A DNA stretch of 43,398 bases from Patescibacteria group bacterium (GTDB lineage Bacteria > Patescibacteriota > Minisyncoccia > Moranbacterales > SCTJ01): NCBI GenBank assembly GCA_004297805.1, contig SCTJ01000079.1, positions 1 to 43,398 on the forward strand, read 5' to 3'. Below are positions 6,265-9,197 of this stretch, in pieces. Below the pieces are notes generated by a model. It had not been told where the DNA came from. It searched no databases and saw only the letters and a program-made list of their open reading frames with translations. Numbering within the stretch: position 1 is the first letter of the stretch; each line of letters starts with the position of its first letter. The translations under genes were made by a program, and so were the position numbers.

Positions 6265-7332
6265 TTAAATTGACCACATATAGTAGCAAGAAAGTGGTTT
6301 CTTGTCAACCCCGTTACAACCCCTAATTTTAGATACTATATTCCCAAGTCCTTTTGCCCGGCAATGCTGCAACATCCCCAAATACGACTGCACCGATTGA
6401 TGAAAGGATTCTTCACTGATTCGTCCTTCGTTCAGATTGATTCTGCCCGCCGCGATTTTTTTGAACATCCGCCGTTTGGTTTTGGTGCGCAGTATCGCAT
6501 GAGTTGGAAAAATGACATAGCCCAAAAAATCAATACCACGATGGAACTTTTTGATGGTTACTTTACGCGGATGGAGGCTGAGCTTCAAATAAGTGCGCAA
6601 AAAATCATCTAGCAGCGGGATCATATTTTCTAGCTCAATTCTGTTATAACTAACAATAGCAAAATCATCCGCGTAGCGGACATAGTGCTTGATTCTCAGT
6701 GTGCGCTTCACGAATTGGTCTAGTTCATTGAGATAGACATTGGCTAATAGTTGACTCGTCAGATTGCCAAGCGGAATACCAATTCCTCTCCCCCTGCCCG
6801 AGGGGGAGATTGAGAGGGGGTGGGAGGGAGAGACAAAACTACAAATAATTTTCTCAATTAGCTGCCTCGTTTTTCCATCCTTTATCCTTTTGGAGATAAT
6901 GTCTATTAAGATGGCATGATCCACCGAATCGAAAAACTTGCGAATATCGCATTGCAGCACCCACACGGTGCGGGTGCGATTGCGGGATAATTTCCAAGCA
7001 AATTGATGGAACCTCTGAATGGCGCGGTGCGTGCCTTTGTCTTGGCGACTGGAATACGAATCAAAAATGAAAGTCCGTTCGAAAATGGGTTCAATTACTC
7101 GCGTAATGGCATGGTGGAGTAGGCGGTCTCGGACACTGGCCTTGTGGATGCGTCTGGGTTTTGGGTCACACACCGAAAATGCGGTATACTGGGAATGTTG
7201 GTACTGATTGCCGACTAAATCGGCATGCAATTCGAAAACTTTTTTTTCCAGATTGAGCGCAAATTCCTGCACATCTCGTTTCTTTTCTTTACCCTTTTTG
7301 AACTCCCGCCAAGCGGCAAACAGGTTTTCCAA
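6265..7332 (-). CDS. DGR reverse transcriptase
   Basis: RDRLLHHA, CDIRKFFDSVDH, GIPLGNLTSQLLAN (DGR-type SQ motif), YVRYADDF, GIDFLGY. The frame stays open upstream to 7419. A likely true start, ATG 7430, needs +1 G in the 7394-7403 tract. Confidence 0.95.
   Translation of the reverse strand: MENLFAAWREFKKGKEKKRDVQEFALNLEKKVFELHADLVGNQYQHSQYTAFSVCDPKPRRIHKASVRDRLLHHAITRVIEPIFERTFIFDSYSSRQDKGTHRAIQRFHQFAWKLSRNRTRTVWVLQCDIRKFFDSVDHAILIDIISKRIKDGKTRQLIEKIICSFVSPSHPLSISPSGRGRGIGIPLGNLTSQLLANVYLNELDQFVKRTLRIKHYVRYADDFAIVSYNRIELENMIPLLDDFLRTYLKLSLHPRKVTIKKFHRGIDFLGYVIFPTHAILRTKTKRRMFKKIAAGRINLNEGRISEESFHQSVQSYLGMLQHCRAKGLGNIVSKIRGCNGVDKKPLSCYYMWSI
6280..6308 (-). promoter_or_regulatory. Sigma70 promoter for the beta-helix gene, inside the RT 3' end
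   Basis: TTGACA (6308-6303), 17 nt, TACTAT (6285-6280). Confidence 0.55.
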
Positions 7333-7393
7333 GGAAATAATTTCATCAAAAATTTTGACATTTGAATTTTTAATTTTGAATTTACTACTATGA

Positions 7394-7403
7394 CCCCCCC
7401 CCC
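7394..7403. repeat. C10/G10 homopolymer shared by the overlapping 5' ends of avd (+) and RT (-)
   Basis: ATGA-CCCCCCCCCC-GG read directly from the sequence; frame analysis in findings. Confidence 0.9.
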
Positions 7404-7442
7404 GGCTTTTCCGAACCTGTCATTTTTCATAAGCTTTCTGTT

Positions 7443-7763
7443 TTGTATCTCGCGACCCACCGGCGCGTGATTGGTTTTTCCAAGCCGTCACGCCATTCGC
7501 TGGGCGTACGCCTGGAAAATACTCTCTTGGAAATTATTGAACTTGGTTATCTCGCTCTTGGGAAACAGGGAACATCGCGGTTAATGATAATTAGCAAGCT
7601 AGACATTAAATTGCGTATCTTTTTCACGCATCTGCGCCTGGCTCACCAAACACGCTGCTTGAACGATGCCGGATACGCCGAACTTTCTCAGCACTCAGTT
7701 GAACTTGGAAAAATGATTGGCCATTGGATCAAGGCAACGAAAACCGCGCTGAATGCGCGGTGA
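7443..7763 (+). CDS. avd: DGR accessory variability determinant (Avd/bAvd-like four-helix bundle protein)
   Basis: Basic ~110-125 aa helical protein: FSKPSRHSLGVRLE...LRLAHQTRCL...ELGKMIGHWIK. The in-frame upstream extension PPPGFSEPVIFHKLSV reaches ATG 7390 only with +1 C. Confidence 0.85.
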   Translation: MYLATHRRVIGFSKPSRHSLGVRLENTLLEIIELGYLALGKQGTSRLMIISKLDIKLRIFFTHLRLAHQTRCLNDAGYAELSQHSVELGKMIGHWIKATKTALNAR

Positions 7764-7775
7764 CGTCTGTTTCTT

Positions 7776-7892
7776 CAAGAGAATACCACCCCGTTGTTCG
7801 ACCACTCATTGTCAGGCTGATTCCTGTTCACGTTCGCTCCAGTCGCATTCGCGTTGCCGAAGTTGAGCAGATTGCCATCGGAAGAGGTGCTG
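7776..7892 (-). repeat. DGR template repeat (TR)
   Basis: 117-nt ungapped alignment to 8170-8286 with 15 mismatches, all at minus-strand A in TR; 10 AAY codons in the target frame. Confidence 0.95.
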
Positions 7893-8162: not shown

Positions 8163-9197
8163 TCAACTGCAAGAGAATACCACCCCGTTGCCCGACCACT
8201 CATTGCCAGGCTGATTCCCGCGCACGCGCGCTCCAGTCGCATTCGCGTCGCCGAAGCGGAGCAGAGCGCCACCGGAAGAGGTGCGGCTTGACCAAGAATA
8301 ATTGCCATCGGTGAAGAGTTGCTGCCCTTTTTTGTGGGCTACTAAATAGCGAAAGATGGTGTTTTGGACCGGTTCGCGCAGGAGTCGGGAAACTTGGAGA
8401 GTGGAAAGAATTTGGGAGGCTTTGATGTAGTCACCTTGCTTGATTAGTTTGGCGATTTCGGGTTTTCTTTTTTTGAATTCAGTTTCAGCGGTTTGATACT
8501 CAACTGGGAGACTTCCGGCAAAAACGTTTTGCTTGGCATATTGGATGAGGAGTTCTGTTTGTTTTAGATAGTCCTTGCCAGTGGAATCTGGCAGGATATT
8601 GGGTGAGACGAATTGCCAACCCGCTTTGGGAGTTTGTTGAATAACCTGAGTTTCATTTTTGAACCAGGCCTCGGTTTTGAGATTACCTTGGTCATCGAAT
8701 TGATCTTTGTATAATAAATATTTGGCGGGATTTCCTTGTTGGTCACGTTCGATGACATTGCTACCAATCTGCGCTATGGCCAGTTTAGCCATGGTTTCAA
8801 TGGTAAGTGGGGTGCCGTCGGGAGCATGGGAGAGATTCAAGACCAGCATGTGGCCCAGTCTTTGGTGGAGTTCCAACTCCTCTTTCTTGAATGGAATGGG
8901 CGGGATGTCCTGGGGTTTGATCTGGAAACCAAAAGCTCGTTCTAGGTCTTGGGGGCCAAGGAATCTTTCTGGTCCCATGATCCTTTCAGCTTGTTCGGGA
9001 GAGACGTGGAATTGTTCGCGGAGACTAGATATTCTAATTTCCAGCTCTCTTTGCAGGCTTTCGGCTTGGTTCAAATGGCCGAGGCTAGTTTCGGTATCTT
9101 GAGTCTTTTCGCCCTGGACTAGCAGCGTGTCAAAATCAGCCTTGAGCTTTTGGATTTCAGAAAGATTGTCGGCTATTTGGTGGCAGTTGGATTGCAT
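8163..9197 (-). CDS. DGR target protein (N-terminal coiled coil, C-terminal CLec-like VR domain), 344 aa
   Basis: Contains the VR; YSWSS...GVVFSCS* ending. Start set at ATG 9197 (MQSNCHQIADNL) by homology to the paralog starts at 28761 and 27777. No signal peptide seen. Confidence 0.9.
   Translation of the reverse strand: MQSNCHQIADNLSEIQKLKADFDTLLVQGEKTQDTETSLGHLNQAESLQRELEIRISSLREQFHVSPEQAERIMGPERFLGPQDLERAFGFQIKPQDIPPIPFKKEELELHQRLGHMLVLNLSHAPDGTPLTIETMAKLAIAQIGSNVIERDQQGNPAKYLLYKDQFDDQGNLKTEAWFKNETQVIQQTPKAGWQFVSPNILPDSTGKDYLKQTELLIQYAKQNVFAGSLPVEYQTAETEFKKRKPEIAKLIKQGDYIKASQILSTLQVSRLLREPVQNTIFRYLVAHKKGQQLFTDGNYSWSSRTSSGGALLRFGDANATGARVRGNQPGNEWSGNGVVFSCS
8170..8286 (-). repeat. DGR variable repeat (VR) at the 3' end of the target gene
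   Basis: Encodes RTSSGGALLRFGDANATGARVRGNQPGNEWSGNGVVFS; 10 A>G and 5 A>C changes relative to TR. Confidence 0.95.

Follow-up and report, generated by a model that had tools for sequence, protein, structure and literature searches.

A simple-sequence repeat in the overlap of divergent avd and reverse transcriptase genes, a probable length-dependent switch of Patescibacteria DGRs

The stretch of Patescibacteria DNA analysed here (43,398 nt, hereafter the window) carries a DGR in which avd and the reverse transcriptase (RT) gene overlap head to head, with a C10/G10 homopolymer lying inside the overlap. An unstable repeat at the avd/RT overlap is a family trait of about 100 related bacteria among the best matches listed, and since a repeat of the same unstable type is found at the same spot in these relatives, slippage of the repeat probably turns the DGR on and off. 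We consider it rather probable that the tract acts as a slipped-strand contingency locus and switches Avd and RT together, the allele present in the window having an OFF length. The anatomy of the overlap, the conservation of the site across the family, the coupling of the two reading frames, the length polymorphism in relatives and the mostly out-of-frame consensus alleles are all shown by the sequences. The coordinates of the features are collected in the table.

Features of the DGR in the window (positions on the forward strand; a dot marks features assigned to neither strand)
Feature	Positions	Strand	Remark
DGR reverse transcriptase frame	6265..7419	-	open from 7419; first canonical start TTG 7332; stop included at 6265
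Avd reading frame	7380..7763	+	open from 7380; annotated-style ORF from TTG 7443; stop ends 7763
Candidate true avd start codon	7390..7392	+	off by 2 from Avd body at C10
41-nt head-to-head overlap, avd start codon to RT start codon	7390..7430	.	registers checked from coordinates
C10 (+) / G10 (-) homopolymer	7394..7403	.	simple-sequence repeat within avd/RT overlap
Candidate true RT start codon	7428..7430	-	off by 2 from RT body at G10
Template repeat (TR)	7773..7890	-	repeat comparison
Variable repeat (VR), 3' end of target gene	8167..8284	-	15 mismatches to TR
DGR target gene, 397 aa	8163..9356	-	no Pfam match

With regard to the identity of the element, the minus-strand ORF scores 81.6 bits against RVT_1, and its best PDB match is the Bordetella phage bRT (8ub7_A, E 1e-45, query residues 22-324), i.e. 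the RT is of the DGR type. The nearest RT in a collection of 5.8 billion proteins is 61-62% identical. The plus-strand ORF matches the Pfam family bAvd (PF22296) with an E-value of 7.8e-9 and a score of 36.4 bits, which is under the 40-bit cut-off, and Avd had no match among PDB sequences. Over 118 nt, all 15 mismatches between TR and VR fall at TR adenines (A>G 10, A>C 5) and, as the two repeats differ at these adenines only, the element has been active. Pseudogene decay was ruled out by these adenine-only VR changes in the window, together with the intact RT bodies in all fetched loci. The order and strands of the genes (target/VR, TR, reversed avd, RT) correspond to architecture B3, TR-(avd)-RT, and are exactly those of the B3 DGRs of Wu et al. 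2018 (PMC5758913), according to whom this architecture accounts for 90% of CPR DGRs.

On the plus strand, the avd ATG is followed by A 7393, the C10 tract and GGC, the tract coding for Pro-Pro-Pro in Avd and, on the opposite strand, for Gly-Gly-Gly in RT. The avd ATG lies antisense to the RT codon CAT (His of GGGH), just 3' of the tract, and the RT ATG lies antisense to the Avd codon CAT (His of VIFHK) in Avd helix 1. Since the start codon of each gene is antisense to a His codon of the other, both genes need the same tract length class. The same antisense-His arrangement occurs in the relatives inspected, with the motifs GGG..H in RT and (I/V)(I/V)HK in Avd. The distances from start codon to gene body are 53 nt for avd (7443-7390) and 98 nt for RT (7430-7332); both are 2 modulo 3, so that a tract of 11 or 8 bases restores both ATGs and one of 9 does not. 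Tract length modulo 3 thus decides the start-codon frame of both genes in the window, and the C10, a perfect G/C repeat, is long enough to slip (about 8 bases or more).

As assembled, the frame of ATG 7390 reads MTPPPAFPNLSFF... and stops after 26 codons, and the Avd frame, which opens after TGA 7377-7379, reads IYYYDPPPGFSEPVIFHKLSV-L(TTG 7443)-YLATHRR..., the residues ahead of TTG 7443 being ...DPPPGFSEPVIFHKLSV. On the minus strand, the frame of ATG 7430 reads MKNDRFGKAGGGVIVV... (also given as MKNDRFGKAGGGV...), and the RT frame reads QVRKSRGGGHSSKFKIKNSNVKIFDEIIS-L(TTG 7332)-ENLFAAW, with ...RGGGHSSKFKIKNSNVKIFDEIIS ahead of TTG 7332. TTG 7443 for avd and TTG 7332 for RT are the only canonical in-frame starts in this assembly; from an in-frame tract, N-termini of the form MKNDRFGKAGGG... 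and MTPPPGF... would be expected. The original prediction, made from the letters of the window, had described a divergent avd/RT overlap in which one tract length class sets both frames, with both ATGs out of frame at C10 and restored by 11 or 8 bases, and the coordinates and frames bear this out exactly. It had also claimed that a single slip of one base in either direction toggles both genes. This stands for the gain of one base (11), which restores the frames; the loss of one (9) leaves them out of frame, and it is the loss of two that restores them.

The same prediction held that the internal TTG starts cut off conserved N-terminal sequence, with which the bRT alignment, the start of the bAvd profile and the leader pattern of homologues all agree. 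The alignment with bRT begins at KIFDEIIS, 8 residues ahead of the TTG-7332 codon, and the RT ORF as assembled therefore lacks conserved N-terminal residues. In the bAvd match, profile position 15 falls at residue 27; the start of the profile therefore lies near PVIFHK and ahead of TTG 7443, which implies that helix 1 begins about 9 residues upstream of this codon. Most of 120 aligned RT homologues begin with M-(N/D/I)-(N/H/Q)-(R/K)-x-(I/F)..., followed by GGG, H and (K)IFDEIISLENLF, a pattern also summarised as M-x-N-R-x-I...GGG...H...IFDEIISLENLF. The leader in the window, MKNDRFGKA, agrees with the M-x-(N/Q)-(R/D)-x-(I/F) leader of the family and, when the ATG-7430 leader is joined to the RT frame inside the G run, the product fits the homologue pattern. 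In relatives that are in frame, Avd starts with M..(0-8 aa)..PPP..IP(I/L)(I/V)HK. An internal M/L-ENLF serves as the start in several homologues and in the database entry of the window itself (P0003), as expected of a gene caller faced with a tract that is out of frame.

The C10 tract is the longest homopolymer of the window; the runners-up are 8-mers, and no G run of 7 or more is present. Our own rough estimate for a C or G run of at least 10, given 43 kb with an even base composition, is about 0.06, but a chance origin is irrelevant here because of the comparative data on relatives. A promoter scan of positions 7150-7700 was uninformative, with no sigma-70-like site (0.7 in shuffles) and one terminator-like site (1.1 in shuffles). 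The G10 of the window could be a consensus drawn from a population of mixed tract lengths, or the assembly could be wrong by 1 nt. If such an error were the explanation for the window, the true tract would have 11 (or 8) bases and both genes would be in frame, which we find improbable. Homopolymers are error-prone in sequencing and assembly, and the length of 10 comes solely from the likely source assembly; a run search with the window sequence returned one match, a groundwater metagenome, two runs of the same study yielding next to nothing and no RNA run being among the matches listed. However, about three quarters of more than 100 independent tract-bearing assemblies are out of frame, which is too many for consensus errors at 9-10-mers, and the family-wide feature stands even if the window allele was miscalled.

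The relatives comprise the best 80 of 594 loci from species-representative genomes, all of them CPR/Patescibacteria MAGs, and the best 80 of 565 loci from metagenome contigs; with the window they amount to 161 loci, of which 9 are exact duplicates and some are truncated by the end of a contig. A divergent Avd ORF adjoins RT in 141 of the 161. Within these best-80 sets plus the window, a run of G7-G17 is found in the 130 nt before the RT motif in 96 of 161 loci, and (AG)n of 5.5-18.5 units occupies the same site in 19, the other 46 having neither repeat. The outcome that the original prediction named as refuting it, homologues without the tract or with starts at the TTG codons, is not borne out, the tract being a clade-wide feature. 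The concentration of such runs at this site is pronounced: 77 G/C runs of at least 9 lie in the 133-nt pre-motif windows of 140 loci (18.6 kb in total), versus 2 in the other 671 kb of the same loci, one of which is 141 nt before the motif. This corresponds to a roughly 1,400-fold difference in density. Of five whole genomes that contain loci of this kind, two (0.9 and 0.5 Mb) have no G/C run of at least 9 other than the DGR tract, both such runs of a third lie in the avd/RT overlaps of two DGRs, and the remaining two genomes have 3 and 6.

A tree of 138 RT cores requires 18 changes of the repeat label (none, poly-G or (AG)n), compared with a mean of 47.4 after shuffling (0 of 200 shuffles as low). 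The minimum numbers of changes imposed by the starred, well-supported branches are 9 for poly-G and 3 for (AG)n, these counts being rough as the tree is a quick FastTree one. The changes on the tree indicate that the repeat was gained, lost or exchanged repeatedly. With regard to mismatch repair, MutS domain V and the MutL mismatch-repair domain were detected in 0 of 5 related genomes, the completeness of which is not established, versus 11 of 14 controls. Slippage is probably frequent, because MutS and MutL went undetected in these five genomes; Campylobacter, for its part, is not known to have mismatch repair.

Several loci show other forms of the repeat. The (AG)n/(CT)n loci (including L021, L022, L039, L042, L052, L054, L057, L059, L061, L065 and L066) belong to a sister group of CPR DGRs and carry the repeat about 30-70 nt before the RT motif, where it reads SLSLSL in Avd and RERERE in RT. 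Their frame offsets are coupled, being 0/0 in L039 and L054, 1/1 in L052 and L066, and 2/2 in L059 and L022. In L072, about 20-100 nt before the RT motif, the place of the homopolymer is taken by short units of the GTCCT/GTCCTGTCCT type in tandem; they appear in the Avd N-terminus as GQDRT at least three times, and their 15-nt period at the protein level would allow a length change without a frame change. The contig of L078 opens with about 48 C directly before the RT start (L078:1-48), and the database RT P0138 is cut at a contig edge inside the Gly run, so assemblies seem to break at the tract, as expected if it is length-heterogeneous or hard to sequence. Furthermore, L098, L118, L122 and L124 were classed as repeat-free, yet have no in-frame Avd ATG before helix 1. 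As L122 carries a G10 at 141 nt before the motif, just beyond the search window, the repeat census is probably an undercount.

The frames of the two genes are coupled in relatives as they are in the window. Among 105 loci with a simple-sequence repeat (SSR), 39 have a family-type RT leader together with an unambiguous Avd ATG, and the RT offset equals the Avd offset in 38 of these. The sole exception is L024, in which the leader-scoring rule, an ad hoc one, mis-picked MSIWSNPW and not the family-like MRQRNV leader. Eight of the 38 coupled loci are in frame, 17 are off by one and 13 are off by two; with offsets 0, 1 and 2 all present, a single programmed ribosomal frameshift was ruled out. The coupling has a limit that counts against a two-gene switch, namely that in 66 of the 105 SSR loci the leader-scoring rule picked no RT leader of the family type on the 5' side of the tract. 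In several such loci RT apparently starts at an ATG 3' of the tract, and there only the Avd frame is tract-dependent.

The consensus alleles of repeat-bearing loci are mostly out of frame. An in-frame Avd ATG before helix 1 is present in 30/34 repeat-free, 25/80 poly-G and 5/17 (AG)n loci, and an in-frame canonical RT start in 34/34, 59/80 and 13/17, respectively. Both genes have an in-frame ATG in 27/34 repeat-free loci, versus 21/80 with poly-G and 5/17 with (AG)n (Fisher p ~1e-7 for this difference). Taken as a share, about a quarter of the repeat-bearing loci are in frame, compared with about 80-90% of the repeat-free relatives. The body-to-body register, phi, was tried as a measure of ON and OFF and dropped, non-overlapping repeat-free genes having no need to be in register; phi is not 0 in 11 of 34 repeat-free loci despite in-frame ATGs in both genes.

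These frame states bear on the possibility of a neutral hotspot, in which the N-terminal extensions would be dispensable, translation would start downstream, and the tract would be kept by the antisense GGG/CCC coding constraint. Such an explanation draws on the N-termini of repeat-free relatives, which are much shorter (e.g. M-x-D-x-D-IPIFKK for Avd, and 6 codons before the motif for RT), so that the Gly/Pro stretch itself is not needed. We nevertheless judge it quite unlikely. The window has no canonical start between the tract and the conserved helices, and a canonical in-frame Avd start before helix 1 is missing in 38/80 poly-G versus 4/34 repeat-free loci. Moreover, a neutral tract should decay to mixed Gly/Pro codons, whereas pure runs are enriched to the extent given above and recur on the tree.

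The claim of a length contingency locus at the DNA level finds support in relatives whose tract varies on identical backgrounds. A MAG locus (L018) has G10 and two metagenome contigs (L094 and L095) have G9, about 600 aligned nt being otherwise identical. In one 90% cluster, which includes the organism of L001, seven proteins share a 342-aa RT body with zero mismatches and differ in their N-termini, namely MNNRSAKTWLGGGGH, MNNRSAKTWLGGGGGGH, MAGGGGH, MKGGGGGGH, a contig-edge GGGGGGGH and a short MA start; identical bodies therefore carry 4, 6 or 7 Gly together with different start frames. Two further protein clusters show the same pattern of N-terminal variation. Two observations count against a switch. 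The three copies of the L018 organism (G10, G9 and G9) all have OFF lengths, the ON lengths G8 and G11 being unseen there, and near-identical SSR pairs from different assemblies are of equal length in 5 of 6 cases, some of which may share reads.

In another pair, L051 and L141, the loci are 85% identical over 1.4 kb and have the RT leader peptide MQQGNFDFTLS in common; L051 has G9 with both genes in frame, and L141 has G11 with both off by two.

The Avd offsets 0, 1 and 2 occur in 25, 38 and 26 of 89 SSR loci (chi-square p = 0.17 versus random), and near-random frames are also the expectation if frame did not matter, e.g. with slippage at the RNA level or on the ribosome. In a recoding explanation of this kind, RNA polymerase would gain or lose bases on the homopolymer, or the ribosome would re-pair tRNA-Gly or tRNA-Pro in a different frame; a small share of both proteins would then be in frame whatever the DNA length, and the tract would set a low level of expression, not an ON or OFF state. 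A perfect homopolymer of 9-13 permits re-pairing in any frame, and recoding would account both for the near-random consensus states and for a majority of alleles being out of frame although the RT bodies are intact. On the other hand, +1 and +2 offsets both occur, which leaves no single programmed ribosomal shift, and the DNA length itself varies on identical backgrounds. In addition, the dinucleotide repeat (AG)n, a classical DNA-slippage substrate and, to our knowledge, not a known site of transcriptional or ribosomal slippage, holds the same site in 19 of 161 loci. DNA slippage appears to be the property common to poly-G and (AG)n at this site, which argues for switching at the DNA level. 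Recoding, the main rival, seems to us unlikely, less so than an assembly error or a neutral hotspot, and DNA switching and recoding could both operate.

Returning to the contingency locus, we can propose the following mechanism. All four frame segments would share one codon register only at the right tract length modulo 3, here 8 or 11. Slipped-strand mispairing during replication would alter the length of the tract, each change presumably shifting both start codons into or out of frame together, and mutagenic retrohoming would be toggled in a heritable yet reversible manner. The reversibility and rate of switching and the loss of function in OFF alleles are inferences, and such alleles may be leaky through slippage of RNA polymerase or the ribosome. 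A broader reading is that the repeat has been repeatedly installed across the Patescibacteria-specific DGR clade, one slip toggling both enzymes, and that it acts as a stochastic and heritable 'mutator of the mutator', with targeted hypermutation ON in a minority of cells and OFF in the others, as a form of bet-hedging; here our confidence is evenly balanced. Roux et al. 2021 (PMC8144416) reported an activity lower than average for DGR clade 2, a clade confined to Patescibacteria, and this fits mostly-OFF populations, though other explanations exist.

As regards known systems, the tract resembles the poly-G/C contingency genes of Campylobacter, Neisseria and Bordetella, in which a G/C homopolymer of about 8-13 lies near the coding 5' end and its length modulo 3 decides translation. 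Phase variation in Campylobacter is reported to depend on hypermutable G/C tracts (PMC8355987), and homopolymeric tracts of Bordetella pertussis to behave likewise (PMC1891110). Unlike in these contingency genes, the tract of the window is shared by two genes, one on each strand, and the function under it is a targeted mutagenesis machine, theirs being a surface structure. No report of contingency loci in CPR/Patescibacteria was found in literature searches. The fimbrial switch hifA/hifB of Haemophilus influenzae depends on a (TA)n repeat in overlapping divergent promoters and is similar in that a single repeat tract co-regulates two divergently transcribed genes. It differs in acting through promoter spacing on transcription, whereas the window tract is inside both coding regions and would act on the reading frame. 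In insect endosymbionts, polymerase slippage at poly(A) tracts rescues frameshifted genes, and there too, in reduced genomes, a long homopolymer with an out-of-frame length is the sole interruption of otherwise intact genes. The endosymbiont tracts consist of A/T, occur in many different genes and are interpreted as mutational decay with partial rescue; unlike them, the tract of the window family is G/C or (AG)n, site-specific and conserved in the clade.

Outside classical pathogens, hypermutable repeats in phage genomes have been described to give reversible frameshifts as bet-hedging (10.1101/2025.10.21.683753, PMC12633550), a likeness in repeat-based frameshifting. These phage loci concern other genes and hosts, and the abstract of PMC12633550 states no link to DGRs. 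The main text of PMC5758913 does not contain the word 'homopolymer', its single 'frameshift' concerns VR indels, and neither the overlap of avd and RT nor the repeat within it is described there. Homopolymers, SSRs or phase variation in DGR avd/RT were not found in literature searches or in the main texts of PMC5758913 and PMC8144416. Phase variation by G/C tracts and B3 DGRs are known already, and the feature without a counterpart in the literature searched is a repeat that lies where the 5' ends of avd and RT overlap in antisense and that fixes the frame of both genes.

No natural protein diversifier is more powerful than the DGR, and the question of how cells keep DGRs in check is largely unsettled. 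In CPR bacteria, which form the largest DGR reservoir, a repeat-driven frame switch of two genes, if real, would answer this question in simple genetic terms. It would also account for the apparently low activity of the Patescibacteria DGR clade in metagenomes, and would be evidence that CPR bacteria use contingency loci at all. With regard to annotation, many RT and avd genes of CPR are annotated with truncated or wrong starts, and DGRs regarded as 'inactive' may be in the OFF phase and not dead. The switch claim can be tested directly in existing metagenome reads, and the tract site may serve in engineering as a compact bidirectional switch.

Two further tracts were noticed in the genome of L017 (G002). 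A second DGR RT on contig C3 carries a G10 inside the RT body (L161:1476-1485), just before the motif G-x-P-x-G-N-x-T-S-Q, and its tblastn match switches frame exactly there. On contig C8, an in-frame G11 lies inside a 439-aa ORF with a DPPY motif (L163:1539-1549); this motif resembles that of a DNA methyltransferase, and the ORF may presumably encode a phase-variable methylase.
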